From positions 109,308-173,307 of IMG/VR virus record IMGVR_UViG_3300043395_001986: a stretch of DNA of 64,000 bases; one strand, given 5' to 3'. Shown piece by piece: positions 118 to 48,401 of this stretch; within the stretch, counting starts at the first letter, position 1; each line of letters begins with the position of its first letter. Made by a program: the position numbers and the translations under genes. Source of the stretch: a virus. Lineage: Duplodnaviria > Heunggongvirae > Uroviricota > Caudoviricetes. The notes under the pieces were generated by a model that searched no databases, was not told the DNA's origin, and saw nothing but the letters and a program-made list of their open reading frames with translations.

Positions 118-135
118 TAAAATAAAAATCGCACA

Positions 136-609: not shown

Positions 610-636
610 TCTTTTTATTTTAAATAACAATATTTA

Positions 637-662
637 TAAAGGTACTATATAGTACCTTTTTT
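637..662 (+). terminator. intrinsic terminator-like palindrome
   Basis: AAGGTACTATATAGTACCTT is a perfect palindrome and is followed by a T-run. Confidence 0.55.
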
Positions 663-696
663 CGTTGTTAAATAACAATAAAAACGTTCCATACAT

Positions 697-1233: not shown

Positions 1234-1263
1234 CATATTTATACAAAACGATAAAAGATATAG

Positions 1264-3912: not shown

Positions 3913-3966
3913 ATATTTATAATAAGTAAAAACATTTTTAATCGTCTTAAAAAAAAGGTAAACTAG

Positions 3967-6900
3967 ATGGCACTTAAATTTAGACGTGGGACAACCGCAC
4001 AGAAATCAGGTTCGTTAGCAGTAGGAGAACCATATATTAACTATGACCTACAAACATTACAAATAGGAACGGACCAAGGAGATGTAACATTGTCTACAAC
4101 AAGTCCAACTGCAACATCAGCAGTAGCATCTATTTCCGCATCAAACTTTTTATCAGCTTCTTATTTAGAAATTGTAAATGATGCAAATATTAAAGGAAAT
4201 GTAACTATTGGTGGTACAATTCAAATTGGTGATAATACATCGGATACTATTAATGTAGTAGCATCATTGAGTTCTTCACTTATTCCGCAATCAGATAATA
4301 CCTATGATTTAGGTTCTCTTTCTAAATCTTGGAAAGACCTTTATATATCTACTGGTTCAATTAAATTTGTATCAGCAGGTACAATAGTAGGTTCATTATC
4401 AACAAATGCATCGGGATTACAATTAACAAACGATATATATGTTGCAAGTGATGGTAACACAGGTGTTAGAGTTGGTAGAGGTGCTGGAAGTAATACAACA
4501 TTTAATACTGCATTAGGTTATGCAGCATTAAACAGCAATACAACTGGACAATCAAATACAGCAGTAGGCGCAACGGCATTAACATCAAATAAATCTGGTG
4601 ATAGTAATGTGGCAGTTGGTACAACCGCATTATCATTTAATGAAGCTGGAAGTGATAATACTGCAGTTGGTACTCAAGCATTATATAAAAATGCGGGATA
4701 TCAAAATACAGCAGTAGGTAAAGAAACATTATTTAATAGTATTTCTGGTTCAGGCAATACTGCAGTCGGTGCAATTGCATTAAAAAGAATTGGTGATAAT
4801 GGCGGAAATAATACAGCAATTGGTTACCTAGCTGGACAATATGCAAGTGGTTCATCAAATTCAAACGTATATATTGGTAATGGAGCCGGTCCAACTGCAA
4901 GTGTTGAAGAAAGTGGAAAATTATATATTAACAACGCAGCAAGTAACACTCCATTAATTGGTGGTGATTTTACACAAAGAGAAATATATGTTGATGGTGA
5001 TATTATACCAGCAACAACAAATGCAAGAGATTTAGGTTCTTTAACAAATATTTGGAGAGACCTTTACATTTCTACTGGTTCAATTAAAATGGTATCAAAT
5101 GGTGTAGTTGTTTCCGTATTATCAAATACGGGAAATGGATTTGCATTAGACCAGGGTATTACTGCAAATGGTAATAGTTCATTTGGTACATCATCTGCAG
5201 CAGTAACATCGGTAACCGGTTCATTGAATGTAAGTGGTGCGGTAGCAGTAATTGGTTCAGTAAGTGCATCAACAATTACTGGTATTGGTAATGTAACAGC
5301 ATATTCATCTTCAGTAAATAGTAGAGTATCATCATTAGAATCATTCTCATCTTCATTAGGAAATGGATTTGCAACAGATGCAGAATTAGGAGTAGTAAGT
5401 GCAAGTGCATGGGGAGCATTCCAAAGTGCTTCTGCATACTCTGCATCTTTAGCAACTTCAATTAGTGCAAGTAAAGCAGAGTATACATCATTTAGTGCAA
5501 GTAATGCAACAAATGATAATACTCAAACAACAAATATAACAGCAGCTTCTGCAAGTGCATGGGGAGCATTCCAAAGTGCTTCTGCATACTCTGCATCTTT
5601 AGCAACTTCAATTAGTGAAAGTAATGCAAGTGCAGTAGGATATAGTGCTAGTGCAGCAAGTGCATTGAGTTCTGTAAGTGGTGCAGTAGCAACTTCATTA
5701 AACAATGCTAGTTCTTCTGCGTATTCAACATTTGCTAAATTAAATGGGGATAACACATTCACCGGAACACAAATTATTACTGGTTCACTTTATATAAGTT
5801 CTAATTTAATAGTTCAAGGTTCATCATCATTACAAAATATAACTGCAAGTGCAGTATCAATTGGTACTAATACTGTCATTTTAAATACAAATAACCCTGC
5901 TGTAAGATATGGTGGGTTATCGGTAACTGATAGTGGTAGTGCAGCAGGTAAGAGTGGTTCTTTATATTTTGATTCAACAGATGATGAGTGGATATTTGTA
6001 CATCAAGGAAATGCAGCAGTAACTTCATCAACAGTCATTACTGGTCCTGAAACCTATGATAATTTAGGCAACGAAACCCATTTAACTGATAATAGATTAG
6101 TTAAAGCAAAAAATGGTTTCCATATTGTTGATTCAAATATTTCTGATACTGGTACGAAAGTGAGTATCTCAAGTGATTTAGATGTAATAGGAGCAATAAG
6201 TTCATCAACTATAAATGGTATTGGAAATGTAACATTATATTCATCTTCAGTAGATAGTAGAATTATAACTAATGCAAATGCAGCAGCAGGAGCGTTCGCA
6301 AGTGCAAGTGCATATAGTTCATCTGCAGCAACTTCATTTAGTGCTAGTTTAGCAAACGTAACAGCAATTAGTAGTTCATTTGCGGCAAACACAATAACAA
6401 TAAATGGTACAGCAGTTAAATTAGGTGGTACTTTAACAACCGCACAAACTTTAGCAGGAGCAATTTCATCTTCAGCTCAGGTAAATGGTTTAAGTATTCT
6501 TTATAATTCAATGAGTATTGCTGGTACTTCAACTGCATTAGGTGGAACAATAAGTGCAGCAACAATTGGTAACGCAATTGGAGCATTTAGTTCATCAGCA
6601 CAAGTTAATGGTACTGCAATTCAAAATAATTCAATCACTATCAATGGTACATCAGTAGCATTAGGTGGTACTTTAACTACGGCTCAAACATTAGCCGGTG
6701 CAATAAGTTCATCAGCACAAGTTGACCATAACTCAACTACAAACTATTCAGCAAATAGACATATTGACCATACCGCAGTTTCAATTACAGCAGGTAGTGG
6801 TATTAGTGGTGGTGGTGATATTAGTGCAACTAGAACATTAACATTAGATACCGGTTCTGCACACTTTTTAGGTGGAGCAAGAGGAGCAATATCAGTATCA

Positions 6901-7518
6901 GATACAACTGGTGCAAGTGGTATTGATTTAACATATAATAGTGGTACGGGAGTATTGAGTGGTGTTTTAGCAAATTCGGCGATAACAATTGCAGGTAGTT
7001 CTACTTCATTAGGTGGTTCAATAAGTGCAGCAACAATTGGTAACGCAATTGGAGCATTTAGTGGTTCTGCACAAGTAGATTTAACAGCAACAACTAACTA
7101 TGGCACTTATATTAACCAAGCAGTTAAAACAACTTCTTCACCAACATTTGCTGGTTTAACAATCAATGGTTCAATTACAGCAACCGGAGATATTACTGCA
7201 TACTATACTTCTGATAGAAGATTTAAAAATAATGTTCAAACAATTCCTAACGCATTGGATAAGGTTAGAGCATTAAATGGTGTGACTTGGGATTGGGCAG
7301 AAAATACAAATGATGTAACAAAAGCAGCACCAACAACTGGTCTTATCGCACAAGAAGTTCAAGCAGTATTACCACAAGTTGTTAAGGAAAAAGAAGATGG
7401 TTTCTTGGGATTGGATTACTCAAAGATGATTGGTCTTTTAGTAGAAGCAATTAAGGAACAACAATATAAAATAGATTTATTATCCGCTGAATTAGAAGGA
7501 TTAAAAACTAAAGATTAA
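3967..7518 (+). CDS. long tail fibre with NTAVG adhesin-like repeats and S74-like chaperone
   Basis: N-terminal MALKFRRGT; tandem NTA(V/L)G repeats; C-terminal SDRRFKNN...GLIAQEVQAVLP...LDYSKMIGLLVEAIKE. Confidence 0.85.
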   Translation: MALKFRRGTTAQKSGSLAVGEPYINYDLQTLQIGTDQGDVTLSTTSPTATSAVASISASNFLSASYLEIVNDANIKGNVTIGGTIQIGDNTSDTINVVASLSSSLIPQSDNTYDLGSLSKSWKDLYISTGSIKFVSAGTIVGSLSTNASGLQLTNDIYVASDGNTGVRVGRGAGSNTTFNTALGYAALNSNTTGQSNTAVGATALTSNKSGDSNVAVGTTALSFNEAGSDNTAVGTQALYKNAGYQNTAVGKETLFNSISGSGNTAVGAIALKRIGDNGGNNTAIGYLAGQYASGSSNSNVYIGNGAGPTASVEESGKLYINNAASNTPLIGGDFTQREIYVDGDIIPATTNARDLGSLTNIWRDLYISTGSIKMVSNGVVVSVLSNTGNGFALDQGITANGNSSFGTSSAAVTSVTGSLNVSGAVAVIGSVSASTITGIGNVTAYSSSVNSRVSSLESFSSSLGNGFATDAELGVVSASAWGAFQSASAYSASLATSISASKAEYTSFSASNATNDNTQTTNITAASASAWGAFQSASAYSASLATSISESNASAVGYSASAASALSSVSGAVATSLNNASSSAYSTFAKLNGDNTFTGTQIITGSLYISSNLIVQGSSSLQNITASAVSIGTNTVILNTNNPAVRYGGLSVTDSGSAAGKSGSLYFDSTDDEWIFVHQGNAAVTSSTVITGPETYDNLGNETHLTDNRLVKAKNGFHIVDSNISDTGTKVSISSDLDVIGAISSSTINGIGNVTLYSSSVDSRIITNANAAAGAFASASAYSSSAATSFSASLANVTAISSSFAANTITINGTAVKLGGTLTTAQTLAGAISSSAQVNGLSILYNSMSIAGTSTALGGTISAATIGNAIGAFSSSAQVNGTAIQNNSITINGTSVALGGTLTTAQTLAGAISSSAQVDHNSTTNYSANRHIDHTAVSITAGSGISGGGDISATRTLTLDTGSAHFLGGARGAISVSDTTGASGIDLTYNSGTGVLSGVLANSAITIAGSSTSLGGSISAATIGNAIGAFSGSAQVDLTATTNYGTYINQAVKTTSSPTFAGLTINGSITATGDITAYYTSDRRFKNNVQTIPNALDKVRALNGVTWDWAENTNDVTKAAPTTGLIAQEVQAVLPQVVKEKEDGFLGLDYSKMIGLLVEAIKEQQYKIDLLSAELEGLKTKD
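5401..5617 (+). repeat. 67-nt exact direct repeat within fibre 2
   Basis: 5401-5467 equals 5551-5617; 37 nt (5393-5429) also match 3314-3350 in fibre 1. Confidence 0.9.
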
Positions 7519-7520
7519 TA

Positions 7521-8531
7521 ATGTATGATGTTTATTATACAACTGGTTACGGAAATAAAGTAGGAGCTGGAAGTGATTTGTGGGTTAACAATTGGATTGA
7601 ATGTGTGGCTCCAAAACTTACAAAAAAATCAGTATTACTAATTCATAGAAGTAAGCCAAAAAATTACGAAGAGGGGAATGAACTTCCCCTTTCCGTTTTT
7701 TGGCAAAGTGATGACCCAATTAAATTTGATGAAATGTTGGATGAATGTGAAAATATACACATTCTACACGGACATTATTATCCATCACATGGATTAATAA
7801 GAAATCTAAATAAAATAAAAAGTTATGTAATGCATAACTCAATTGATTTGAGTTTAAAAGCTGGTTTATTCTCCGATGCACCAGGTGTACAACACTTTGG
7901 AGCAGATAGTGAATGGGAAAATAATATAATTGAAAAAGCAGAAAAAAGAATTTGGGTTGGAGTATTTGATACACCAAAACATGCTAATTATAAATTTGAA
8001 AATATCCCAAATTATTATGAGTTTATTCATAATAAAAAACTATCAGATTCAACAATAGTTGGATTTGCAGCAAGAACTGAAACACGAAAGAGAGTTTGGT
8101 ATTTAGAAAATATAAAAAGTGTAATTTTTACAAATGCTAAAATTTTAAGAGATATCTGGGAGAAAAAATATGGATGTGATTTTAGAAAATCAAAAGTATA
8201 TAATTTTGATTGGCAATTTCACACTAATTTTTTTGAAATGGATTGGGGAATAGCACATTGTGCATTTAACTATGAACCATTTGGATATGGTATATTTCAA
8301 GCCGTTGATTGGGGTAAACTTCCAATAATTAGTAATACATGGAATCCTGATTTTGGCTATCCATTTAGAGCTGATAATAAAAAAGAATTTGAAAATTGTG
8401 TTGAAAATATAAAAAAATTAAGTTACGAAGAAAAAGAAATACATTTTAATAAAATAAAAATGTTTTTATCTGATAATTATTCCGACAAAGAATTGTGGAC
8501 AAAAAGATTATTAGATATTTATATTAGTTAA
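7521..8531 (+). CDS. putative GT-B (GT4-like) glycosyltransferase
   Basis: C-terminal YEPFGYGIFQAVDWGKLPII resembles the GT4 EPFG..EA..G.P motif. Confidence 0.6.
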   Translation: MYDVYYTTGYGNKVGAGSDLWVNNWIECVAPKLTKKSVLLIHRSKPKNYEEGNELPLSVFWQSDDPIKFDEMLDECENIHILHGHYYPSHGLIRNLNKIKSYVMHNSIDLSLKAGLFSDAPGVQHFGADSEWENNIIEKAEKRIWVGVFDTPKHANYKFENIPNYYEFIHNKKLSDSTIVGFAARTETRKRVWYLENIKSVIFTNAKILRDIWEKKYGCDFRKSKVYNFDWQFHTNFFEMDWGIAHCAFNYEPFGYGIFQAVDWGKLPIISNTWNPDFGYPFRADNKKEFENCVENIKKLSYEEKEIHFNKIKMFLSDNYSDKELWTKRLLDIYIS

Positions 8532-8543
8532 AGGAGAAAGACC

Positions 8544-10205
8544 ATGCCAAAAACAAATTTAAGTTTAGGAAACTTATTCAGAGCAACAAAAGGAACAGCA
8601 CGTTCAACCGAAACTTCATCACTTAATAATAATAATGGTGGAGGTAGTACACAAGTATCACTATCTGATTTTGCAGTAGATTCTGTTACCCACAATCACG
8701 TATTTACTTATGTTGTAGAAGGAACATCAGAAACATTTACAACAACATTTGGTAGTGCAGGAACAAGACATAGTTCGAGAGTAGCAGGTGTATCACAAAA
8801 TTACACTGTCACAACAAGTGATGCAGCTCAATTCACTATTACGGCAACACCACCAAACTTTTCAATCAATGCACAATCAGTAACATCTGGTGCATATGCA
8901 GGGCAGAGTGCGGGATGTACAATTAGTGCAACTTATGCAGATGGATTTAATACATCAGCAACGGGATATAATGTAGCATCTACAAAAACAATATATTCAG
9001 TAGATACATACAATTCAATCAATGATGTTTATTGTGTAAGCACAGATACGCAAATTCAATTAGCAGATGGTTCATTAGTGGATGCAGGCGATGTGTATGT
9101 TGGAGATAAATTATTAGCATATGTACCTACAACTTTACCAGATGAGAGTGATTCATTTAATCCATGGATTTGGTGGAATGAAAATCAATTAGCAGGTAAT
9201 ACGCAAGAAGTTGTTGTTAGAAATGTATTTTTTAATTTTGTAGATAAATTCTATAATATAAATGATGGTTTATTAAAAGTTACAGAAACTCACCCTACAT
9301 TATGTTTGGATGAACCATCTGGTGTTTATAAGTTTAAGCAGGCAATGGATATTAGAGTTGGTGATAAACTTGTAAAATATAATAAAGATACAAACCAAAT
9401 AGAAGAAATAGTTGTAACATCAAACGCATTAGTATTAAGTTCAATAGAAGTTGTTACAATAGATGTTGAGCAAGCTGACGTTTATTTAGCAAATGGGTTT
9501 ATTTCACATAATAAAGGTTCAAACTCAATTATTCCTATTCCAAACGCAAACTTAAGAATGTATTTGCATCCACAATACTCACAATCAGTTGAAGTAAATA
9601 CAACAGACTGGTCAGACCTTTCTGGATTTAAAACAGGATTTAGACAAATTGCAACACCTACTAGAAATACAACCCCATACTATACTTGGACGTTGAATGG
9701 TAGTTCACAATATTTTTTCAAACCAGCAAATGGTTCAGCAGATGCATTAAGTACAGGTGCAACTGAATTTAATCAATCCGCATTTACATTGATTATGTGG
9801 ATTAAAACTCCTGCTACATTAGGTACTGCAACTTTATTTAGTAAAACAAATGGTTCTTCTAAAGATTATGAATTAGCAATGACTTCAACTGCTTTACAAT
9901 TGAATTCAAGTGTATTCGGAAATGTATCAGTAACACATGGTTTAAGTACATCTACATATAATATGTTGGCAGTAACATTAAGTGGCACAACAACTAAATT
10001 TTATAAAAACGGAACACAGGTAGGAACTGACCAAACAACAACGGCGGGTACTGCAAATAATTCATATCCTTTATATATAGGTGGAGGAGTTGGTACTTAC
10101 TTTAATGGTGAAATTGGTGAAGTAATATTCTATGGTGGAAGTGCATTAACAGCACAAAACATATCAGATATTTACGCTAATACCAAAGGAAGTTATGGTT
10201 TGTAA
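8544..10205 (+). CDS. virion protein with internal Hint (intein-like) domain and C-terminal LamG/ConA-like domain
   Basis: CVSTDTQIQLADGS...TETHP...VYLANGFISHN (aa 164-323); C-terminal FTLIMWIK...LAVT...FYKNG...FNGEIGEVIFY. Confidence 0.8.
   Translation: MPKTNLSLGNLFRATKGTARSTETSSLNNNNGGGSTQVSLSDFAVDSVTHNHVFTYVVEGTSETFTTTFGSAGTRHSSRVAGVSQNYTVTTSDAAQFTITATPPNFSINAQSVTSGAYAGQSAGCTISATYADGFNTSATGYNVASTKTIYSVDTYNSINDVYCVSTDTQIQLADGSLVDAGDVYVGDKLLAYVPTTLPDESDSFNPWIWWNENQLAGNTQEVVVRNVFFNFVDKFYNINDGLLKVTETHPTLCLDEPSGVYKFKQAMDIRVGDKLVKYNKDTNQIEEIVVTSNALVLSSIEVVTIDVEQADVYLANGFISHNKGSNSIIPIPNANLRMYLHPQYSQSVEVNTTDWSDLSGFKTGFRQIATPTRNTTPYYTWTLNGSSQYFFKPANGSADALSTGATEFNQSAFTLIMWIKTPATLGTATLFSKTNGSSKDYELAMTSTALQLNSSVFGNVSVTHGLSTSTYNMLAVTLSGTTTKFYKNGTQVGTDQTTTAGTANNSYPLYIGGGVGTYFNGEIGEVIFYGGSALTAQNISDIYANTKGSYGL
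9033..9512 (+). other. Hint / bacterial intein-like domain
   Basis: Cys1, block-B TxxH (TETH), block-F Asp, terminal His-Asn followed by Lys. Confidence 0.8.
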
Positions 10206-10242
10206 TAATTTTTATATATTTATATATACAAAAATATAAACT

Positions 10243-10491
10243 ATGAAAATAAGAGAAGAATTGTTACAACAAGTTAAACAGATTAGAACATCTGCAATTC
10301 AAATCACAACTACATTAGGTGATTTAGTAATTGATGAAAATAATATCAAGTTACAAAAAGAAGAGTTATTAAAAAACTATTCTCAATTAATTGTAAGTGA
10401 AAAAAATTTAATAGATACAATTAATAAAGAATATGGAGAAGGTAATTTAGATTTGGCAACCGGAGAGTTCACACCAACTGAACAAAAATAA
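10243..10491 (+). CDS. hypothetical coiled-coil protein
   Basis: 82-aa ORF with an upstream ATATTTATA motif. Confidence 0.7.
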   Translation: MKIREELLQQVKQIRTSAIQITTTLGDLVIDENNIKLQKEELLKNYSQLIVSEKNLIDTINKEYGEGNLDLATGEFTPTEQK

Positions 10492-10571
10492 AAAAACAAA
10501 GATACTTTTCAAACTAAATACATATATTTATATGAAGAGTATTTCTATATAAAACATTTAAGGAGAAAACA

Positions 10572-12830
10572 ATGGCAGAAAAAATAGTATCACCAGGCGT
10601 ATTTACGAGAGAAAATGACCTTTCGTTTTTAGCACAAGGAGTATCAAACATCGGAGCGGCAATCGTAGGGCCTTTCAAACAAGGACCTGCATTCAAACCA
10701 ACCATCGTAACATCACAATCTGAATTAGCAGATATTTTTGGTGTTGCAGATGGCACTTATTATACCCCGTTAGCAGCTCAAAATTATTTGAGAGAAGCAG
10801 GTAGTGTAACAATTTGTAGAGTAGCAGGTTTAGGTGGTTATACCGATCCTGGAGCAGTAATTTTAAAAGCAACAACAGCCGGAGAATCTGCATCAGTAGG
10901 TATCTTATTCAATACAATTGATGGTATCACAGGCTCAGCATTTACTTCATTTGGAAATGGTAATTTCACAATAAATGGAATATCATCTTCAGTTGTAGCA
11001 GCAAGTACAGCATCAATTGATGATGTTTTTGGTACATCTCCGTTAGGTGAAAAAGGTGCATATACAATTGGATTATTCGAAAATCACGGATTAACAATAG
11101 ATGGTACAACTACATTAACAGCAGTTAGTGCATCTCAAAATTTTGCATTTGATGCAACTTACGCATCAACACCTTGGGTTAAATCACAAGAAATTGGTGG
11201 TGAAAGATTTGATTTATTTAGAATACATACATTATCAGATGGTGATGTTGAGAATACAAGATTCAAAGTAACTATTTCTCAAATTAAGAGAGCAGGTTCA
11301 ATCGTAGGTTCTGATTATGGTTCTTTCTCATTGCAAGTTAGAAAATTCAACGATACAGATAAGAAAAGATTTATATTAGAGCAATACAACGGATTAACAT
11401 TAGACCCAGATTCTCCAAATTATATAGCAAGAGTAATTGGTGATATTTACAATACAATTGATACCGAAGGTATTAGTGGTAAAGTATCTGAAAATGGTGT
11501 TTGGAAAAACAAATCTAAATACATTAGAGTAGAAGTTAAAGATGGTAGTTTATATCCTGCAGCAGCAGTTCCATTTGGACATGGAGCATATACATTACCT
11601 GTATCAGTAAGTGCAGCAATAGGTAATATCATACCAAAAGTAACTTATTCAACAGCATCATTGAGTTCTTCTGTATATACTAGTGGTATTGATTTAGAAG
11701 GAAACACAGATAATAAGATTTATTTAAGAGCTATACCAGCAAATGCGGGTATTGGTGCAAATGAAGTATTTGGATTAGATACAAATGTTGGATTGGAGCT
11801 ATCAGTAGCAAATGATAATCCAACTCAAATTTCATATAGAAGTTTTACTATTGCATTCCAAGGTGGATTTGATGGTTTTGATGTTAGATTATCTAAAGCA
11901 AAATCAGATGATAACGATAATAGTGCATGGTTAACCGGTAATGTAGGTGGTATGTTATGTGCAGCATCTACACAAAGTGGTTCAATAGCATATTCTTTAT
12001 GTTTTAACGCATTATCTAATAAAGATGAATATGATATTAATCTATTAGTAACTCCTGGTATTGTGAGAAGTTTACATCCATCAGTAGTAACAGCAGCATT
12101 AGATATGATTGAAGCTAGAGAAGATGCATTCTATGTATTCGATGCAGTTGACCATAGTGGTGATATTTTAAGTGTAGTAGAGCAAGCAGAGGCAGTAGAT
12201 TCAAACTACGCAGGTACTTATTATCCTTGGGTTAAAACAATTGATAGTAATACTAACAAATTAATAACTATCCCACCATCAGTATTGATTCCAGCTGTTT
12301 ACGCAGCAAACGATAACGCTAAAGCTGAATGGTTTGCACCAGCAGGTTTAAATAGAGGTGGATTAGTAGGAGCAGTTGGTGTAGTTAATAGATTAACACA
12401 CGCAGAAAGAGATACATTATATGAATCAAATGTAAACCCAATCGCTCAATTCCCAGGACAAGGTATTGTAGTATTCGGACAAAAAACATTACAACAATTA
12501 CCATCAGCATTAGATAGAATTAATGTAAGAAGATTGTTAATCAACTTGAAAAAGTTTGTTGCATCTTCAGCTAGATTCTTGGTGTTCGAACAAAACACTG
12601 CTGAATTGAGAGCTAAGTTTTTAAACATTGTAAATCCATATATGGAATCAATCCAACAAAGACAAGGTTTATATACATTTAAAGTAGTAATGGATGAAAG
12701 TAATAATACTCCTGATACAATTGATAGAAATATCTTACAAGGAGCTATCTACTTACAACCAACTAAAACAGCTGAATTCATTGTAATTGATTTCAATGTT
12801 TTACCAACCGGCGCTACTTTTAACGCATAA
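10572..12830 (+). CDS. contractile tail sheath protein
   Basis: SPGVFTRENDLSF N-terminus; YYPWVK, WFAPAGLNRG, RINVRRL and IYLQPTKTAEFI C-terminal sheath motifs. Confidence 0.95.
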   Translation: MAEKIVSPGVFTRENDLSFLAQGVSNIGAAIVGPFKQGPAFKPTIVTSQSELADIFGVADGTYYTPLAAQNYLREAGSVTICRVAGLGGYTDPGAVILKATTAGESASVGILFNTIDGITGSAFTSFGNGNFTINGISSSVVAASTASIDDVFGTSPLGEKGAYTIGLFENHGLTIDGTTTLTAVSASQNFAFDATYASTPWVKSQEIGGERFDLFRIHTLSDGDVENTRFKVTISQIKRAGSIVGSDYGSFSLQVRKFNDTDKKRFILEQYNGLTLDPDSPNYIARVIGDIYNTIDTEGISGKVSENGVWKNKSKYIRVEVKDGSLYPAAAVPFGHGAYTLPVSVSAAIGNIIPKVTYSTASLSSSVYTSGIDLEGNTDNKIYLRAIPANAGIGANEVFGLDTNVGLELSVANDNPTQISYRSFTIAFQGGFDGFDVRLSKAKSDDNDNSAWLTGNVGGMLCAASTQSGSIAYSLCFNALSNKDEYDINLLVTPGIVRSLHPSVVTAALDMIEAREDAFYVFDAVDHSGDILSVVEQAEAVDSNYAGTYYPWVKTIDSNTNKLITIPPSVLIPAVYAANDNAKAEWFAPAGLNRGGLVGAVGVVNRLTHAERDTLYESNVNPIAQFPGQGIVVFGQKTLQQLPSALDRINVRRLLINLKKFVASSARFLVFEQNTAELRAKFLNIVNPYMESIQQRQGLYTFKVVMDESNNTPDTIDRNILQGAIYLQPTKTAEFIVIDFNVLPTGATFNA

Positions 12831-12875
12831 TTAAAAAAAGAGATACTTATATACAACGATTAAAGGATAAAAAAT

Positions 12876-13364
12876 ATGGCAGAAGTTCTAACATTTGATA
12901 AAATATTCTATACTAACTTTGAACCAAAGTTAAAGAACAGATTTATTATGGAGATTGATGATATTCCATCTTTCATAATTAAAGCAGCTCAAAGACCGAC
13001 AGTTGAATCAGAGGATGTAGAATTACACCACATCAACTTAATTAGAAAGATTAAGGGAAAAACAAAGTGGAATGATATTACAATTAAGTTGTACGACCCA
13101 ATTGTACCATCTGGAGCACAGGCGGCTATGGAATGGATTCGTACTTCACATGAATCTGTAACTGGTAGAGATGGATATGCAGACTTCTACAAAAGAACAC
13201 TAACTTTCAAAACTATTGGACCAGTAGGTGATGTAGTTGAGCAATGGAAATTAGTTGGAGCGTATATTAAAACTGCAAACTTCGGTGATATGGATTGGTC
13301 AGAACAAGACCCAATGGAAATCGAATTAACAATCAGATATGATTACGCAATTTTAGAATTCTAA
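12876..13364 (+). CDS. tail tube protein (T4 gp19-like)
   Basis: Follows the sheath gene; EPKLKNRF...W..ITIKLYDPI...W.LVGAY...FGDMDWS...IRYDYA. Confidence 0.9.
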   Translation: MAEVLTFDKIFYTNFEPKLKNRFIMEIDDIPSFIIKAAQRPTVESEDVELHHINLIRKIKGKTKWNDITIKLYDPIVPSGAQAAMEWIRTSHESVTGRDGYADFYKRTLTFKTIGPVGDVVEQWKLVGAYIKTANFGDMDWSEQDPMEIELTIRYDYAILEF

Positions 13365-13380
13365 TAAGAACTAAACATAA

Positions 13381-13420
13381 AAAAAAAGGGGTACAAAAAT
13401 TGTATCCCTTTTTTATTTTT
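13381..13420 (+). terminator. intrinsic terminator
   Basis: AAAAAAGGGGTACAA-AAA-TTGTATCCCTTTTTT hairpin after the tube gene. Confidence 0.75.
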
Positions 13421-13450
13421 CTTATATTTATATATACAAATATATAGGTT

Positions 13451-14041
13451 ATGACATCAAAAGAATTTGTTATTTGGTTAAGAGGATTTACCGAAGGAGT
13501 ACATGAATTTAATGTAACTCCAAAACAATGGGATTATTTAAAAGAAAAATTGGCAGAAGTTAGTGATGAACCAAAGATAGGAACTCCAATTGGGATAGGT
13601 GGATGGGGAACACCAAATGGTTCACCACATATTACACCACCACAACCAATAGACCCATACAATCCATATAAAATAACTTGTACACCAGGAACAACATCAC
13701 CTGGATTTCAAGTTACAACAACACCTGGTACTACCGGATTTATTACAATTGCCAATCCAAACATAGCATCATTTGGTACAGGTAGTACGGGCATTTTAAA
13801 TACATATAATCCATCATCAACCACATATGGATATCCAAGCGGTTCTGCATGGAGTTATACAAACGCAACACAACCATATAGTACATATGATGATGATAGT
13901 GTTAACCCAAATAAAAAAATAACACCCTGTGTTGGGCATGAATTGGAATCACAGAAAGAAGAAAAAAGAATTAGTAAAAAAAGAAAAGCCAAATCAGTAA
14001 AAGAATGGGAAGAAGAAATTGATTTAGGTGGGGCAGAATAA
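13451..14041 (+). CDS. hypothetical protein with Pro/Thr/Gly-rich low-complexity centre
   Basis: 196-aa ORF with its own ATATTTATA motif. Confidence 0.7.
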   Translation: MTSKEFVIWLRGFTEGVHEFNVTPKQWDYLKEKLAEVSDEPKIGTPIGIGGWGTPNGSPHITPPQPIDPYNPYKITCTPGTTSPGFQVTTTPGTTGFITIANPNIASFGTGSTGILNTYNPSSTTYGYPSGSAWSYTNATQPYSTYDDDSVNPNKKITPCVGHELESQKEEKRISKKRKAKSVKEWEEEIDLGGAE

Positions 14042-14078
14042 AAAATTTAAAAAACAAATAGTTATATAAAAAGTTATT

Positions 14079-14906
14079 ATGGAAGAAAACATTCAAATAG
14101 GAAGAGGTTCGGTTATACCAACACAGACAGTACAACCAACCGAAACAACACAAAAGAAATATGATTTCCCTACGGAAGTTATATCATTGCCATCAGAAGG
14201 TAAAGCATATCCTGAAGGACACCCATTATCAAATGGGACAGTTGAAATCAAATTGATGACAGCAAGAGAAGAAGATATCCTTTCTTCACAAAACCTTATT
14301 AAAAAGGGTATTGTATTAGAAAAATTATTTGAATCAGTTATGATTGACCCTAAATTAGCAGATGAAATGTTAGTAGGTGATAAGAATGCTGTATTAATAG
14401 TTTCTCGTATGTTAGCATATGGACCAGAATATGTTGTAGAGATGACAGACCCTTATAGTGGATTAAAACAAAAACAATCAATAGACCTTTCAGAATTAAA
14501 ACCAAAAGAAATTGATTACTCTCAATTAAATCCACAAAATAGATATACATTTACAACACCATCTGGTAGAGTAATTGAGTTTAAATTATTAACTCATAAA
14601 GATGAAAAAGATATTACTGCGGAAATTCAAGCAATGCAGAGACTAACCAAATCAGAAACATCTTTAGATTTAACAACTCGTTTAAAGAAAATGATTACTG
14701 GTATAGATGGTAACACAGATAGAGGTACAATCAATAGATATGTAGACACTCAAATGTTAGCTAGAGATACAAAAGCGTTTAGAGATAATTTAAGAAAAAT
14801 TTCTCCAGATTTAGATTTGAAATTTAACTTTGTATCAGAATCAACGGGTGAAGTGGAGGCACTTGATATACCTTTTGGGGTTGACTTTTTTTACCCTACC
14901 GAGTGA
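14079..14906 (+). CDS. baseplate hub assembly / tail assembly chaperone (T4 gp26-like)
   Basis: LPSEG..YP, MTAREEDIL, GDKNAVL..R..AYG motifs; lies upstream of the tape measure gene. Confidence 0.75.
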   Translation: MEENIQIGRGSVIPTQTVQPTETTQKKYDFPTEVISLPSEGKAYPEGHPLSNGTVEIKLMTAREEDILSSQNLIKKGIVLEKLFESVMIDPKLADEMLVGDKNAVLIVSRMLAYGPEYVVEMTDPYSGLKQKQSIDLSELKPKEIDYSQLNPQNRYTFTTPSGRVIEFKLLTHKDEKDITAEIQAMQRLTKSETSLDLTTRLKKMITGIDGNTDRGTINRYVDTQMLARDTKAFRDNLRKISPDLDLKFNFVSESTGEVEALDIPFGVDFFYPTE

Positions 14907-15093
14907 TTATAGTAAAACATTACACGAAGAAATATTCTTTTTGGTATTTCAAGGAGGTGGCGGATTTACTCATTCAGATATATACAATATGCCGGTTAAG
15001 ATTAGAAGGTTTTATGCACACATTCTAATTGATATTAAGAAAAAAGAATTGGAAGAACAAAAGAAAGCAGAAAGTAAAGTTAGGAAAAGATAA
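14887..15093 (+). CDS. frameshift-extension ORF of the tail chaperone (G/GT-like)
   Basis: The +1 frame reads FFTLPSDYSKTLHEEIFFLVFQGGGGFTHSDIYNMPVKIRRFY from the T7 run at 14886-14892. The track start at 14830 gives an implausible N-terminus. Confidence 0.6.
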   Translation, partial: FFTLPSDYSKTLHEEIFFLVFQGGGGFTHSDIYNMPVKIRRFYAHILIDIKKKELEEQKKAESKVRKR

Positions 15094-15110
15094 GTCCTAA
15101 CTTTTCTTTT
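15076..15110 (+). terminator. intrinsic terminator
   Basis: AAAGTTAGGA / TCCTAACTTT 10-bp stem followed by a T-rich tail. Confidence 0.7.
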
Positions 15111-15143
15111 TATATGATATTTATTAAGAGTAAAAGACTTATT

Positions 15144-15356
15144 ATGGCAAAAATAGTAATTAGAGAAAATTTTATTGATGATTTAATCGGAAAGTTTTAT
15201 CAGTCATTAGTTGATAATACAGAAAAAAGATACATTGATAGAATCAAAAAAGATGACCCGGAGCTTGCAAAATTATTTGATAAGCAAGCGGAAGCTCATA
15301 AAAAAACACAGGACGCTTTTAGAAAAGCAATAGAAAGAGCATCTGGTAAAAGATAA
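15144..15356 (+). CDS. hypothetical protein
   Basis: ATG at 15144 (MAKIVIREN...) is preferred over the track start. Confidence 0.65.
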   Translation: MAKIVIRENFIDDLIGKFYQSLVDNTEKRYIDRIKKDDPELAKLFDKQAEAHKKTQDAFRKAIERASGKR

Positions 15357-15370
15357 ACAATTTATTTTAA

Positions 15371-18300
15371 ATGGCTACATCCGTTTCAGCAGACCAAGCT
15401 AAATTAAATGATTTAGAAAAAGAATATAAACAACTTTTGGAGAAAAGAAAAGGTCTTCAAAAGGAGTTGAATGCCCTGGATAAAGATAATATAGATAAAA
15501 GAAAAACAATAATTGGTCAGATTAAAGAAATAAACCAATTAATGTATCTTTCTAAAACGTGGCAAGATGAAACTAATGCATCTATAATAAGAGGTGCAGA
15601 TGGATTTAGGTCTATTGCCGATACAATGGAAGCAGTTAAAAATTCAGCAGGAGAAAGTCATGTTGAATTTAGAGGATTAGGAGAAGGATTAAAAGAAAGT
15701 TCTTCATTTATACAAAAAATAGGATTACAACTACAAGAAGCACCAACATCATTGGCTCAAATGAGAGCAATGAGCGAAAACTCTTGGATACCGGAATCCG
15801 CAAAAGCTAGATTAGAAGATGCATTAAACATCCAAGGTCAAATGATGGAATTGCAATCGCAAATGGCCGGAATGAGTGCAGAAGATGGGGATAAGTTTAA
15901 AGAAAAATTATCACTATATACTGCATTAGAAACTAAATTAGCAGAATCATTAACACAATATCAGGGAGAATCTAAAATAGCAGCTTCTATTTTAACTGCT
16001 ATGATGAATCAAAACGAAGAATTAAATAAAAGATTGCCTATTTTAAAATTAAATCAAGCTCTTACAAAAGACCAAAAAGAAGAATTAGAAGAACAATTAG
16101 AAATTTTTAAAAAAATTAAAAATGGATTATTGGCGTTAAATGGTATTGTAAAAACAATGTTTGGAAGTATTACTGGTTTTATTGGAGTTGGTTTAATTGC
16201 ATTAGGAAAGATGTGGCATAAATTCCACGAAATATCAGAAGAGATTGGTGTAGGTATGATGGGTATGATGAAATTTAAAACCCAATTAATGTTGACAGGT
16301 GCGATATTTGGAGAAAAGGGAGCAGCGGCGGCAAAAGAATTAGCTAAACAGATGGGTAATGTTGACCAGGTTGGGTTTATGGCTTCATTGAAAGCAGGTT
16401 ATTTGGCAAACCATTTGGGAATATCGGGTCAAGAAGCAGCAACTTTATCAATGCAGTTTGGTAAAATGCAAGGAGAGAGTGTACTTGTAGGACAAAACAC
16501 AGCCTATGCAGCAGCACATTTAGCAGAAGCAAATAATGTAATGCCAAATGCTGTAATGGAAGATTTAGCAAAAAATACAGAAGTATTTGCTAAATTTTCG
16601 GCACATGGTGGATATAATATGATTAAAGCAGCAGTTCAAGCGGCTAAATTAGGTGTTAGTGTTGAAAAGACAGCGGGTATGGCAGAACATTTATTGGATT
16701 TTGAAAACTCAATAAATGAAGAAATGGAAGCAAGTGCAATGCTAGGTAGAGAAGTAAACTTCCAAAGAGCAAGAGAATTAGCATTTCAAAATGATATTGA
16801 AGGTGCAACAAAAGAAATGTTAAGACAAGTTGGTGGTATCAATGAGTTTAATAATATGAACTTATTCCAAAGACAAGCCATAGCAAAAGCAATGGGTGTA
16901 GAGGTAAGTGAATTACAAACAATGTTAGCAAACCAGGAACAAGCACAGACAGTTACTGGAAAATTACACGGAGGATTTACAGCAATAGGTGGTGCAATAC
17001 AGCATTTATTTAATAATAACTTCTCAAAGATATTAGAAGGTATGGGTGCCTGGTTGGTAATGTTTGGACATATTAAAACAATGTGGCCAGGTGTATTTGG
17101 ATGGTTAAAACAATTTGGTTCATTGGCATGGTCAATAGTTACTGGTCCATTTAGATTGTTAAAGGCATTAACAATGGGTGTGTGGAATGCAATTTCAAAT
17201 AGTGCAATGTGGACACGAATATGGACAGGAATAACAACTGCATTGGGGTCGGCATGGGCATTTGTAAAAAATGCAGCATCTGGTATTTGGAATGCTATTA
17301 TGAATAGTACAATAATGACACGAATTTGGGGAGCAGTAACATGGGCAGTTGGTGGAGCGTGGAATTGGATTAAAATGTCAGGTATGTGGATGTTGAATAC
17401 AATGTTCCCAGGAATATTAGCAAAAATGGCAGCGTTAAAAACCGCCACAATTGCACAAACTGCAGCAGAACAAACAAAAAATGCAGCAACAGCAGGTGGA
17501 GCAGCCGTTAGTACCGGTGCAAATGCAGCGGGTACGGCAGCAACGGCGGGAATGTTCTCTAGAATAAACACAGGTGCATTAATAAAAGGCGCATTTGCAA
17601 TATTAATTTTAGCAGGAGCATTATATGTTGCAGCAAAAGGATTTCAGGAGTTTGGAAGTGTTGAATGGGGAGGTGTTGCAAAAGGATTAGTAGGATTAGC
17701 AGGTATAGCTGTAATTGCAATGAGTTTAGGTGGAGCAGCAAGTCAAATGGTTATAGGTGCAGCGGCAATCGCATTATTAGGATTGGCATTGATACCGGCA
17801 GCATACGCATTTTCATTATTAGGTGGAGTTGATGCGGGTTCAATACTTGCATTTGCAGCATCTATTGCTATATTGAGTTTAGTGGTAACTGGATTGGGAG
17901 CATTAATAGCTGGACCTGGTGCACTTGTATTTGGAGCAGGTATATTAGGATTACTTGCTTTGGGTGGTGCAATTGCAGTAATGGCGAGTATATTAAGTGG
18001 AGTTCAGCCTGGCGCATTCCAAGCGGTAACTGATTTTTTAGTTGCAATAGCACCTGCGGCATTAGTAGTTGCGGCATTAGCAGCAGGAATTTTTATGTTA
18101 GGAACTTCTATAATGTTTTTAGCAACTTCATTAATAGCATTAGGAGCAGCAGGAATTTTATCTGCTCCTGGATTATTAGCTTTAATGGCGATATCGGCAA
18201 TAGCAGAAGGATTGGGAATTGATATGGGTGGAATTGTTGGCGGTGGTGGAAAGCAAGGAGAAGACCCTGTCTTATTGGAATTGCAAGGGTTACGCGCAGA

Positions 18301-44809: not shown

Positions 44810-45187
44810 ATGGGAGAACAACATGTACCATTAACAATCAATGATGATGGATTGGTAACAAAAGTAGGACATGATATGGGTGGGTCCTATGAAATAAAAA
44901 CACCTAAATATGAACAATTAGAAATCCAATTTCCAAAGGTAGATGGAAATGGACAATCTATTTATGAAACGTGTATTATGTGTGGTAATGAAACTACTAC
45001 ATTAAAAAGTACACATATAGATTTTAGAACTGGATATGTAGAGGGAGCGGGACAACTATGTTGGGAGTGTTATACCGGTAAATCTAGGAGTCTTATTACA
45101 ATAGATGAAAGAACTATCATTGATACACCAAACGATGCAGAATTGGGTGCAAAGGTACGACAAATGTATTGGGATAGTAAATCATAA
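44810..45187 (+). CDS. hypothetical protein with CxxC...CxxC motifs
   Basis: CIMCG...GAGQLCWEC. Confidence 0.7.
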   Translation: MGEQHVPLTINDDGLVTKVGHDMGGSYEIKTPKYEQLEIQFPKVDGNGQSIYETCIMCGNETTTLKSTHIDFRTGYVEGAGQLCWECYTGKSRSLITIDERTIIDTPNDAELGAKVRQMYWDSKS

Positions 45188-45195
45188 TTATATAT

Positions 45196-45570
45196 GGGGA
45201 TGCCATGGAATTGATTGCAATGTAAATGGTAGTACCACACGTAGACAAAGGAAGAAAGTCTTTAAATACTTACAAAACAATAACTGACGAAATGTCAACA
45301 ATGACCTTTGATTCTTTAATGGAATTCATCGGCGCTGATTACGCAGTAGCTGCCTAATCACAATCGGGTCGGAATACATATAACCTAGGAACAGAAGTAT
45401 CTATAAAGGTGGAAAATTAACTGAACCCAAAATCGAGTTAAAATAATGATGGCGATGAATTATCAAAACTCGCCTAATTTGTAAGTTTTGATAAAATTTA
45501 CTAAACGTGTGATATGCTGGTATTATTAGTTCTTTGTAAGACAGGGGTTCGATTCCCCTCATCTCCACTA
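45196..45570 (+). ncRNA. ssrA: tmRNA
   Basis: 5' GGGGATG pairs with 3' CATCTCC-A (G3:U); T-arm GGGGTTCGATTCCCC; tag ORF 45286-45357 ends YAVAA*. Confidence 0.92.
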
Positions 45571-45746
45571 AAATTAAATAGTGTGGTATCTGATACTGAC
45601 AGCTCTTTGGGAGTGATGGGTGTGAAAGCAGATTGAAAAGGGTACGACCCAACCCCACACTATTTAATTTAAAAAAATATACAAATATTTTTGGAAAATT
45701 GAATTTTTTGTAGTATATTTGTATATATATAAAAACGAAATAACAT

Positions 45747-45818
45747 CGTGGCGTAGAGCAGAGGTAGCTCACAAGGCTCATAACCTTGGGGTCGCAGGTT
45801 CGAATCCCGCCGCCGCAA
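45747..45818 (+). tRNA. tRNA-fMet (CAT)
   Basis: C1:A72 mismatch; anticodon loop CTCATAA; TTCGAAT T-loop. Confidence 0.88.
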
Positions 45819-45919
45819 CAAATGTTAAGGTTGAAGCCATCAACTAATAAAACCGATTGAGTGACGTATGCAGTACGGAAGAAAGCCGGACACCTTAACA
45901 AAAAAAAAAACCCAAAGAA

Positions 45920-45952
45920 ATTTGGTAGTTTGAAAAAAGTATCGTATATTTG
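45920..45952 (+). promoter_or_regulatory. Bacteroidota-type sigma-A promoter
   Basis: ATTTGG...TCGTATATTTG upstream of the large ncRNA. Confidence 0.75.
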
Positions 45953-46029
45953 TATTGTTAAGTTTGAAACTTATAGGCAATGAAAGATACTCGGTATTCA
46001 AACTTTTAGTTCTTTAAAAGATTAAAAAT

Positions 46030-46565
46030 ACTTTACATAGTAGACTTGTTCTACATAGTAAACAACGGCCGCATATGGTCGTCAAATAAACTACGAAAGT
46101 AGGATAAAGTGGATTGTTAGGTTTACACAATCTGCGGTTTATAGGTCTTTGGACTTATGAGCTTGAGTATGCAAGTGGGGTATCATTTGAGCTTTGTACG
46201 AAAGGGTAACACTATATCGGAAGAGTTTGAATGACCGGGGTAAGTAGATACTTCGGTTGAGTTCGGAAGAACAATAAGAATAACTCATAGAACATCAGTA
46301 AGAAATATAACGCTAATCACTTTATACAATTGCGGTGTTCAATTCAAGAGGAGTCTTAAAACCAAGCCATCCGAAAGGACGTAAGGTATGTTAATGTACA
46401 GGTGGTGCTGTTATTAACCATTGATAAATCGTACCAACGATTATTGGTGAAGATTTCTTATAGAATGGTACTGACGATAGTACATCGGGTAGTTCAGTAT
46501 TCTCTCGACCAAAAGTTGAGGGAACTGGTTGGCAAACCGCTACCTGAACCCATCTACAAACCAAC
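46030..46565 (+). ncRNA. large ornate ncRNA, ROOL/GOLLD-like (family unconfirmed)
   Basis: ORF-poor; several GNRA-capped hairpins; long-range GTAGAT/ATCTAC pairing; upstream promoter; adjacent to tRNAs. Confidence 0.6.
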
Positions 46566-46614
46566 CCTTTTATCAAAATGAGGATTTTGACAATTCAATT
46601 TAAAAATAAAAGCT

Positions 46615-47245
46615 TAAGTGTTTGCCAGTTACGGACGAAAGATGTGTACATAGTAGGGAGCTGTTCCTTGCCACGATACCTTCGCAAGAGGTCTGTGATT
46701 CTTTAAAAAAACTTCTAACACCGCAAGTGTTAATCAGGTCGGCAGATTTGAAGAAGCGGAGTATAAAGAGAGTAAGACGTAACTCAAAGACTGATAGTCT
46801 CAAATCATCCACATTGTATCGGTACTACTCAAAAGGTAGTGGATAAGAAAGGAAACAATAATCTTTCTAAAGTCGGTACTCCCAATGAGGTAATCTCACT
46901 CATTTATTTTTTTACAATGGTTGTATATTGGTTCGATTCCAATAGTAAAAACAAATAGTCCGTTTGCAATAATAGCTCGAATAGTGAGAAAGAAGCAGTT
47001 AGGACTTTAACTAAACAACAAAACCTTTGAAACTATTCACAAGTATCGTGGTCATTTTAGCATAGAGTTCAGATGTGCGAACCTCTCAAGCAGTTTTAGA
47101 CCTAATAAAAAAACTAAAATGTAGCATAGATACATCCGGTTTTGTGGGGAAGTTTTAGACCAATAAATAAACGCAATCTATACGATATGATTGCCAGTTA
47201 TGTAGTAGGCCGCTATAAGAGAGAGCTGTTCCCCTTTTTCTCTCA
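46615..47245 (+). ncRNA. unassigned large structured ncRNA block(s)
   Basis: Multiple hairpins; duplicated TTGCCAGTTA/TAGTAGG/GAGCTGTTCC motif; no convincing ORF. Confidence 0.5.
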
Positions 47246-47350
47246 TTTTAAATGGCTAATTTGACGAGGCTAGTATTAACCAGAGCATGACTTGGATGGC
47301 GTATTTTGAAGTTAGATTAGCTTTTTTAAAAAAACTATATTTATTATAAG

Positions 47351-47446
47351 ATGATGAACTTGAATTTACATACGAATTGTTATCAACCGACGCTTAATGT
47401 GTGGGGTAGCATTATTATGTATAATTCAGGGGATATAAAAGGATAA
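47351..47446 (+). CDS. putative 31-aa leader peptide
   Basis: MMNLNLHTNCYQPTLNVWGSIIMYNSGDIKG*, between an ATATTTAT motif and a terminator. Confidence 0.45.
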   Translation: MMNLNLHTNCYQPTLNVWGSIIMYNSGDIKG

Positions 47447-47474
47447 TAGTATAGTAGATTATATAAATTATTTG

Positions 47475-47508
47475 AAAACCCTGACTTAAAAAAGTTGGGG
47501 TTTTTTTG
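47475..47508 (+). terminator. intrinsic terminator / attenuator before the tRNA array
   Basis: AAAACCCTGACT / AGTTGGGGTTTT stem followed by T7. Confidence 0.8.
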
Positions 47509-47515
47509 TTTATAG

Positions 47516-47589
47516 GCTTCTTTAGCTCAGCAGGTTAGAGCGACTGACTGTTAATCAGTAGGTCCTTGGTTCGAGCCCAAGAAGAAGCG
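47516..47589 (+). tRNA. tRNA-Asn (GTT)
   Basis: Cloverleaf; GCTTCTT/AAGAAGC acceptor stem. Confidence 0.93.
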
Positions 47590-47594
47590 CAATT

Positions 47595-47676
47595 GGGAGT
47601 ATTGTGTAGCGGCAATCACTGCGGACTGTAAATCCGCTCTCATTCGAGTTCGAAGGTTCGAGTCCTTCTACTCCCA
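47595..47676 (+). tRNA. tRNA-Tyr (GTA)
   Basis: Cloverleaf with long variable arm. Confidence 0.93.
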
Positions 47677-47682
47677 CAAAAA

Positions 47683-47754
47683 GCAGGTGTCGTATAATGG
47701 CCATTACTCCTTCCTTCCAAGTAGGAGACGGAGGTTCGATTCCTCTCACCTGCT
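47683..47754 (+). tRNA. tRNA-Gly (TCC)
   Basis: Cloverleaf; U73. Confidence 0.9.
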
Positions 47755-47759
47755 CAAAT

Positions 47760-47830
47760 TGCCTCTTTGTGTAATGGTAGCACAAAAGTTTTTGGTTCTT
47801 TTAGTTTAGGTTCGAATCCTAAAGAGGCAT
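47760..47830 (+). tRNA. tRNA-Gln (TTG)
   Basis: Cloverleaf; TGCCTCT/AGAGGCA acceptor stem. Confidence 0.88.
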
Positions 47831-47835
47831 CACTT

Positions 47836-47909
47836 TGGAATATAGCTCAATTGGTTAGAGCATCCGTCTGATACGCGGAAGGTTGTAGGTTCGAGTCCCA
47901 CTATTCCAA
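47836..47909 (+). tRNA. tRNA-Ile (GAT)
   Basis: Cloverleaf; anticodon loop CTGATAC. Confidence 0.9.
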
Positions 47910-47970
47910 CCGATGTTTTGTAGTAATGAGGTAAGGTTAAAACTGACATACATAATACAAAACATAAATT

Positions 47971-48041
47971 GCGGGTTTGGTGCAACGGCAGCATGTAAGT
48001 CTCCAAAACTTTTGATGGGAGTTCGAATCTCTCAACCCGTG
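47971..48041 (+). tRNA. tRNA-Trp (CCA)
   Basis: Cloverleaf; anticodon loop CTCCAAA. Confidence 0.88.
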
Positions 48042-48049
48042 CAAACAAT

Positions 48050-48122
48050 GGCTCTATGGTGAAATGGATTATCACGCAACGCTACGGACGTTGAATTTTG
48101 GGTTCGAATCCTAATGGGGCTA
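48050..48122 (+). tRNA. tRNA-Arg (ACG)
   Basis: Cloverleaf; anticodon loop CTACGGA. Confidence 0.9.
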
Positions 48123-48137
48123 CTAAAACAAAATGAT

Positions 48138-48401
48138 ATGAAAACATTTAAAGATTTGGAATTTAAATCTCACCCAATGGGTATGGGAGTAATAGCTAGA
48201 GAAGATTTTCATAATGGTTATGGAGTGACCGTTGTAAAAGGACCGCACACATATGGTGGAGATAAAGGATTATATGAATTGGCAGTTTGGAAAGATGGAA
48301 CAATTCATTACGATAATCCAGTTGCAATGGGAGATGTGGTTGGATATTTAAGAGAAGAAGATGTTACCGATGCTATTTTATTAGTTCAGAAATTTGAATA
48401 A
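48138..48401 (+). CDS. hypothetical protein within the tRNA array
   Basis: MKTFKDLEFKSHPMG...; ATG at 48138 lies outside tRNA-Arg. Confidence 0.75.
   Translation: MKTFKDLEFKSHPMGMGVIAREDFHNGYGVTVVKGPHTYGGDKGLYELAVWKDGTIHYDNPVAMGDVVGYLREEDVTDAILLVQKFE

Follow-up and report, generated by a model that had tools for sequence, protein, structure and literature searches.

A tRNA-associated RNA stretch of a 237-kb jumbo phage as the front part of a GOLLD RNA

The locus

The DNA analyzed here, referred to as the window, is a stretch of 64,000 nucleotides (positions 109,308 to 173,307 of IMG/VR record IMGVR_UViG_3300043395_001986). The source record is a complete virus of 237,307 bp, a jumbo phage. 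Rfam scans identified a tmRNA and 21 tRNAs in the window, all on the + strand, which is also the strand of a GOLLD RNA present in a single copy in the whole phage. The order at the locus is tmRNA (45196–45568, +, with a 23-residue tag ending in ADYAVAA), tRNA-Met, GOLLD, and then an array of 20 tRNAs, and the relatives of the phage are syntenic (tmRNA, tRNA-Met, GOLLD, tRNA-Asn, remaining array). The neighboring phage genes, all on the + strand, encode a tail-fibre chaperone domain, a class II ribonucleotide reductase, an AAA ATPase, a metallophosphoesterase, and a family-B DNA polymerase. A phage or prophage site adjoining tRNA genes is characteristic of GOLLD, and such a site is found here, in a 237-kb virus with a tmRNA, 21 tRNAs, and phage proteins. 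The tmRNA tags of four relatives (L019, L004, L009, and L011) are 24 residues long and very similar, and they are likewise encoded upstream of tRNA-Met and GOLLD.

The interval 46030–46565 had been flagged from the sequence, in what we call the original prediction, as an ornate noncoding RNA of about 540 nt and of the ROOL/GOLLD kind. That it is a large ornate RNA associated with phages and tRNAs is borne out by a GOLLD match and by the tRNA and tmRNA setting.

Family match, homologues, and extent of the RNA

The proposed check with the Rfam ROOL and GOLLD models assigned the family. GOLLD (RF02032) matched 46485–46902 (+) over the full length of the model (positions 1–416 of 416) at 269.1 bits, with a gathering score of 150 and an E value of 1e-75. 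The Rfam model describes the conserved 3' domain only, and it overlaps the flagged interval in the last 80 nt of the latter. Within 46065–46484, Rfam gave a sub-threshold manA-like match alone (17.6 bits), and a permissive scan (E ≤ 1) of 45560–47520 returned nothing further of relevance.

A total of 58 loci were collected from viral contigs by two word scans, one with a word from the 5' part and one with a word from the 3' core. In an nhmmer comparison (query 45990–46920) nearly all 58 loci aligned over the whole length, from about 46008 or 46065 to about 46910, and full-length collinear homologues were obtained with the 5' word and, independently, with the 3' word. Duplicates and truncated copies were removed, which left an alignment of 40 sequences, the window and 39 distinct full-length homologues. 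Of the relatives fetched, L019 comes closest, at 80% identity. Averaged over pairs of sequences, identity is 30% for the leader (45990–46064), 65.5% for the 5' domain (46065–46484), 68% for the hairpin that opens the 3' domain, 44% for the linker (46558–46612), and 66.9% for 46613–46902. Within this subfamily, the 5' half and the half modeled by Rfam are equally well conserved. A blastn search of the INPHARED phages gave one weak match, inside the flagged part, to LR745206, a 635-kb uncultured phage; its locus has a tRNA, then a similar 5' stretch, and then an Rfam GOLLD match at 287 bits.

Conservation begins abruptly at 46065, and the conserved unit is 46065–46902 (+), approximately 838 nt. 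This extent is supported by nhmmer, the 40-sequence alignment, the consensus fold, the Rfam match, the start of the env-38 GOLLD, and contigs from RNA runs. The unit has the GOLLD plan, that is, about 800 nt divided into a 5' domain (P1–P13 in the literature), a variable linker (J13/15), and a conserved 3' domain (P14–P27). The 5' or "cap" domain (46065–46484, +), recognized by its identity, its base pairs, and its env-38 bridge loops, makes up most of the flagged interval. It is followed by P14, the hairpin with which the 3' domain starts (46485–46547, +; Rfam model positions 1–62, equivalent to env-38 pairs 422–481), by a linker of 55 nt with many indels and without a tRNA (46558–46612, +), and by the remaining 3' or "ring" domain, P15–P27 (46613–46902, +), through which the RF02032 model runs to its last position. 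The original size of about 540 nt and the boundaries 46030–46565 thus need revision: that interval comprises about 35 nt of weakly conserved leader, the 5' domain, the hairpin that opens the 3' domain, and the beginning of the linker. The T-run near 46570 sits inside the variable linker and is not an end of the RNA; contigs from RNA runs bridge it.

Secondary structure and the link between the two domains

The + strand of the 536-nt flagged stretch folds at −156.8 kcal/mol (z −5.27), a value equaled by none of 100 shuffles, and the − strand has a z of −0.81. The consensus fold of the 40 sequences contains 190 pairs, and one or more compensatory double changes occur at 141 of these. Counted from this consensus fold, 99 pairs lie inside 46071–46483, of which 71 are compensatory; an independent RNAalifold run gave 113 pairs inside 46065–46484, of which 74 are compensatory.

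Every motif of the original prediction is present at its given position, and covariation in the 40 sequences bears out all but one of the six local hairpins as well as the long-range helix. The hairpins CTAC-GAAA-GTAG (46091–46102), GTTC-GGAA-GAAC (46261–46272), and GTACTG/TAGTAC (46468–73/46478–83), all on the + strand, are 99–100% paired with compensatory changes. In the ACCA-loop hairpin AATCGT/ACGATT (46427–32/46437–42, +) the stem is wholly variable and the YACCAA loop is conserved. The TCC-GAAA-GGA hairpin (46370–46379, +) is a clade-specific extension, found in 11 of 40 sequences, of a shorter GAAA-capped stem. The sixth, GGTT-GGCA-AACC (46527–46538, +), has to be given up, as it is only 43% paired across the alignment and its GGCAAAC (46531–37) pairs instead with GTTTGCC (46620–26, +). 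This pseudoknot is 99.6% paired with compensatory changes at six of seven positions, and it corresponds to the published covarying pairs 467–471/555–559 of the env-38 GOLLD, a further GOLLD characteristic. The outer stem of the first 3' hairpin is supported by the Rfam alignment. A second pseudoknot lies at the 5' terminus, where a hairpin (46065–70/46077–82; 84% paired, compensatory at 46066–46081) carries GCATAT (46071–76) in its loop; these residues are 100% paired with GTATGC (46167–72, +), with four pair types at 46073–46170.

The long-range helix GTAGAT/ATCTAC (46244–49/46552–57, +) joins a loop of the 5' domain to the strand just 3' of the first 3'-domain hairpin. The pairing proposed earlier is real: the helix is 95.8% paired, four of six positions are compensatory, none of 1000 shuffles is as good, and slid controls reach at most 40%. 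Three covarying states occur, namely GTAGA/TCTAC, GTGGA/TCCAC, and ACCGG/TCGGT. The helix is probably P13 of the literature, since the nomenclature (P1–P13, J13/15, P14–P27) implies a P13 strand between P14 and the linker, which is where ATCTAC sits. The published env-38 supplementary tables, which cover motifs and bridges rather than ordinary helices, give no contact at about 180–185/488–493 (PMC12286853).

Because two covarying helices cross the flagged 3' boundary, the two halves form one molecule. One might instead suppose that the 5' stretch is an independent RNA gene of about 0.5 kb ahead of a shorter GOLLD with the 3' domain only, as Rfam models 46485–46902 only, the literature describes weaker conservation of the 5' region, and a construct limited to the 3' domain is still able to assemble (PMC12990946). 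We regard this as very improbable. Besides the two helices, the P14 hairpin spans the supposed boundary, the halves are collinear in all homologues and are separated by neither a promoter nor a terminator, contigs bridge 46390–46698, and the env-38 GOLLD is a single chain of 833 nt.

Comparison with the env-38 GOLLD and other systems

The env-38 GOLLD is 833 nt long, lies 3' of a tRNA-Met, and was found by cryo-EM to form a 14-mer cage of D7 symmetry (PDB 9MEE; Kretsch et al. 2025, PMC12286853). Its residues 1–420 make up the caps and residues 421–833 the rings, and a disordered linker, residues 497–538, points inward (PMC12286853). The published env-38 covariation table spans residues 422–832 only (PMC12286853). 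Motifs of the window and env-38 were compared by eye, from a published text with missing letters and not through a base-level alignment.

The opening motifs of env-38 are those of the window from 46065 onward, and at a constant offset of about 46063–46064 the bridge residues of env-38 land, by this comparison of motifs, on loops in the window. By eye, the window has the env-type 5' domain of GOLLD, with loops at residues 33–35, 201–204, 339–342, 369–372, and 410–414. The GAAA at 46095–98 is equivalent to G33–A35 (A34/A35) of bridge B1, which in env-38 is the sole contact of the 5' domain with the 3' domain of a neighbor, and GGAA at 46265–68 to G201–A204 (A203/A204) of B3. For the kissing bridge B5, UGGU 46403–06 with ACCA 46433–36 stands for U339–U342 with A369–A372, and this complementarity is retained in 40 of 40 sequences. 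For the kissing bridge B4, the loop 46474–78 with 46316–20 stands for G410–U414 with A253–C257; the window has ACGAU/AUCAC, three pairs, compared with five in env-38 (GGGAU/AUCCC) and four to six in most homologues. The GAAA loop at 46373–76 is probably L11a.

The two RNAs are also alike in length (833 and about 838 nt), in the tRNA-Met upstream of each, in the two-domain plan with a variable internal linker (the window linker corresponds to env-38 residues 497–538), and in having the bridge loops (GAAA, GGAA, UGGU/ACCA, and the GGGAU type) at the same residue numbers along with the 467–471/555–559 pseudoknot. They differ in that the window sequence is distinct, its B4 is cut to 3 bp, and its L11a-like stem is extended; the window phage is a jumbo phage of freshwater and rivers, whereas env-38 comes from a marine scaffold. 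Words specific to env-38 occurred in none of the fetched loci. Judged by its sequence features, the window RNA can be classed as a close relative of the env-38 GOLLD. The sequence is new and the family is known; the RNA is neither a ROOL nor a new RNA class.

The GOLLD of Streptococcus agalactiae forms a 12-mer, and its 3' domain alone a 10-mer (PMC12990946). It belongs to the same family and has the same 3' domain (P14–P27), but it is 700 nt long and lacks P9, P11a–c, and P21b, whereas the window has the full env-type 5' domain. Mobile elements that combine GOLLD with a large tRNA array and a tmRNA are already known from mycobacteria (PMC6582537, PMC9569102). The window shares this combination; however, in the mycobacterial GOLLD a tRNA lies inside J13/15 and the carriers are chromosomes, plasmids, and prophages of Actinobacteria, as against a jumbo phage of the lytic type whose promoter boxes resemble those of Bacteroidota.

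ROOL (RF03087) is likewise a large ornate RNA of phages and prophages near tRNA islands and forms RNA-only cages (8-mer or 6-mer), and so operates along similar lines. The earlier view that size and context fit ROOL best drew on the flagged size of about 540 nt and the phage and tRNA setting, and we now give it hardly any chance of being correct. Scanned at the gathering threshold, the window yielded no ROOL match, and 45560–47520 yielded none even at E ≤ 1; the same transcript bears a full-length GOLLD 3' domain, and it resembles the env-38 GOLLD from the first residues. ROOL is unrelated to GOLLD in sequence and secondary structure, and its plan, in which 5' and 3' parts intertwine over about 580 nt, is not that of the window RNA, which is about 838 nt long with two separately conserved domains and a variable linker. 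It is about equally implausible that 46065–46484, with no Rfam hit beyond the manA-like one, represents a new class of ornate RNA or a coding sequence, as its 5' domain is plainly homologous to that of env-38, the overlapping ORFs are short (the longest 49–61 aa on either strand), and substitutions track base pairing and not codons.

Expression in public sequencing runs

The stretch, whole or in part, is present in 20 public runs, 11 of which are river or freshwater metatranscriptomes. Contigs from one DNA run and from three RNA runs, each of a different study, were mapped on 45000–48200. Such contigs are no proof of transcript ends, strand, or level, and contigs of related phages are drawn to the conserved parts. 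With this reservation, word depth in the three RNA runs climbs at the 46070–46176 bin, from 69 to 11,462, from 1.2 to 48, and from 0.2 to 2,945. Depth ranges from 36 to 17,224 over 46070–46925, staying high through the 46819–46925 bin, is about zero over the tRNA block, and is near zero over 47354–48200, whereas the DNA run is continuous throughout. The domain boundary and the linker are bridged by RNA contigs (X11 record 14, 46390–46698; X6 record 28, 46536–46697). These observations hint at an abundant RNA of about 840 nt. The missing cover over 47354–48200 and upstream of 46070 in the RNA runs is a weak hint only.

Upstream elements

The original prediction placed a promoter at 45945. The box there, TATATTTG (45945–45952, +), is of the Bacteroidota −7 type. 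It also precedes tRNA-Met (45714) and the tRNA blocks (49410 and 50331), and it is found just upstream of GOLLD in seven of the fetched loci (L031, L033, L035, L039, L040, L041, and L055). The word TANNTTTG is enriched, with 156 occurrences as compared to 111 ± 11 expected. The TATATTTG box is a plausible candidate for the promoter of the GOLLD unit.

The leader (45960–46064, +) contains a conserved GTTCTTTAAA box (46009–46018) and a small hairpin, GTAGA/TCTAC (46040–46054). Depth over the leader is low in the RNA runs (69, 1.2, and 0.2, against thousands within GOLLD), and the leader appears to lie outside the abundant RNA. A GTTCTTTRAA box is present 20–60 nt 5' of the first GOLLD helix, with a small tetraloop hairpin, in most of the loci L002–L060. 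It is not general in this phage (two matches, 0.77 expected), and it is probably transcribed, since it is downstream of the TATATTTG box in some loci. The box may serve in processing or regulation.

Downstream region

Immediately 3' of GOLLD is a tRNA-like remnant (46906–46951, +) with a 7-bp acceptor-like stem, TTTTTAC/GTAAAAA, and a canonical T-arm, ATTGG-TTCGATT-CCAAT, without D and anticodon arms. Neither ARAGORN nor Rfam called it, and 46903–46955 folds like its shuffles (z −0.4). At the equivalent position in L011, ARAGORN finds a tRNA-Gly(UCC). The remnant could mark a 3' processing site of GOLLD.

The ORF-poor block that follows, 46955–47253 (+), is deep in contigs of the three RNA runs. 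Cover is deep over 47033–47353, and X18 record 22 (47096–47279, depth 5,247) shows zero differences from the window. The block, which is specific to the near relatives of the window, contains a direct repeat, AGTTTTAGACC (47092 and 47151), and shuffles fold as well as the block does (z −0.7). An apparent three-part copy of GOLLD 46621–46665 at 47191–47235 was rejected, as it amounts to two collinear 13-mers with an E value of 0.82 each.

Next is a hairpin RNA of about 74 nt (47254–47327, +) that has a 12-bp closing stem and a CAUGA loop and is followed by a T-run. The closing stem is rewritten in each clade, and the apical module is near-invariant (TAACC-N-G-N-GCATGAC...GGCG). In a model-fitted alignment, which favors structure, covariation is strong: the hairpin is 95.8% paired, 17 of 22 pairs show double changes, none of 500 shuffles does as well, and slid controls reach at most 45%. 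Rfam has no family for it even at E ≤ 5. The first word scan for the hairpin gave 119 loci, mostly chance matches, which were filtered with nhmmer and a covariance model. This covariance model (R1) finds the hairpin once in this phage and in 6 of 59 loci gathered with GOLLD words; in 100 loci that a permissive word scan of viral contigs supplied, it has 46 full-length matches. Further copies of about 70–74 nt are L063:2216–2283, L092:149–216, L097:3920–3987, and L079:7474–7545. In the env-38-like clade the hairpin lies 51–369 nt 3' of GOLLD. In distant phages it fills tRNA-sized slots in tRNA arrays, with spacers of 1–8 nt and often near a tmRNA, and most of these fetched loci are without GOLLD. 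Since the 12-bp stem is as long as the acceptor and T-stem stack, tRNA-processing enzymes might, as a guess, excise the hairpin.

A 31-codon ORF (47351–47446, +) lies 5' of a terminator at 47474–47505. It belongs to a conserved family of small proteins, MKTLxLHT...W.G...LEDTDVG, of 29–53 aa with in-frame length variation, encoded 23–66 nt past the hairpin in 17 of 22 relatives examined. The 31-aa copy of the window keeps the start of the family and differs at the C-terminus. The sequence pattern looks more like that of a small gene than of a pure leader peptide.

Discussion

In our view, with a probability of about 95%, the flagged stretch is the front part of one GOLLD RNA of about 838 nt, belonging to a 237-kb jumbo phage and located between tmRNA/tRNA-Met and a 20-tRNA array. 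As the Rfam model covers the 3' domain only, every env-type GOLLD has a 5' half with the appearance of an unannotated ornate RNA, and such halves will go on being flagged as such. The alignment of 40 sequences provides covariation support for the 5' cap domain, for two pseudoknots, and for the helix that ties the cap to the 3' domain.

By analogy with env-38, the RNA would fold free of protein and self-assemble as a closed cage (of 14 subunits in env-38), in which the 5' domains would form two caps and the 3' domains the rings, with the variable linker directed inward. The loops flagged earlier would then be contacts between subunits, GAAA in B1, GGAA in B3, ACCA/UGGU in B5, and 46474–78/46316–20 in B4. 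We infer cage assembly of the window RNA from homology only. With B4 at three of five pairs, the stoichiometry of the cage could deviate from that of env-38, and this natural weak-B4 variant could serve to probe how the number of subunits in a cage is determined.

The literature assigns no biological role to GOLLD (PMC12286853, PMC12990946). Tentatively, and with the odds against it, the RNA may be a bulk product of the lytic phase, made with the phage tRNAs and tmRNA, that acts on the translation apparatus by enclosing or scaffolding cargo, either ribosomal or of tRNA size. This very RNA is present in river and freshwater metatranscriptomes.

The more novel item at the locus is the conserved hairpin RNA that occupies tRNA slots of phage tRNA arrays. 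It is conceivable, though in our estimation rather unlikely, that GOLLD heads a composite RNA unit together with the expressed block of about 300 nt, the hairpin of about 74 nt, and the gene of the 29–53-aa peptide, in which the hairpin or the peptide would act as a cage partner, cargo, regulator, or tRNA-like decoy. If the hairpin or the peptide does work with the GOLLD cage, it would provide the first genetic handle on the function of GOLLD.
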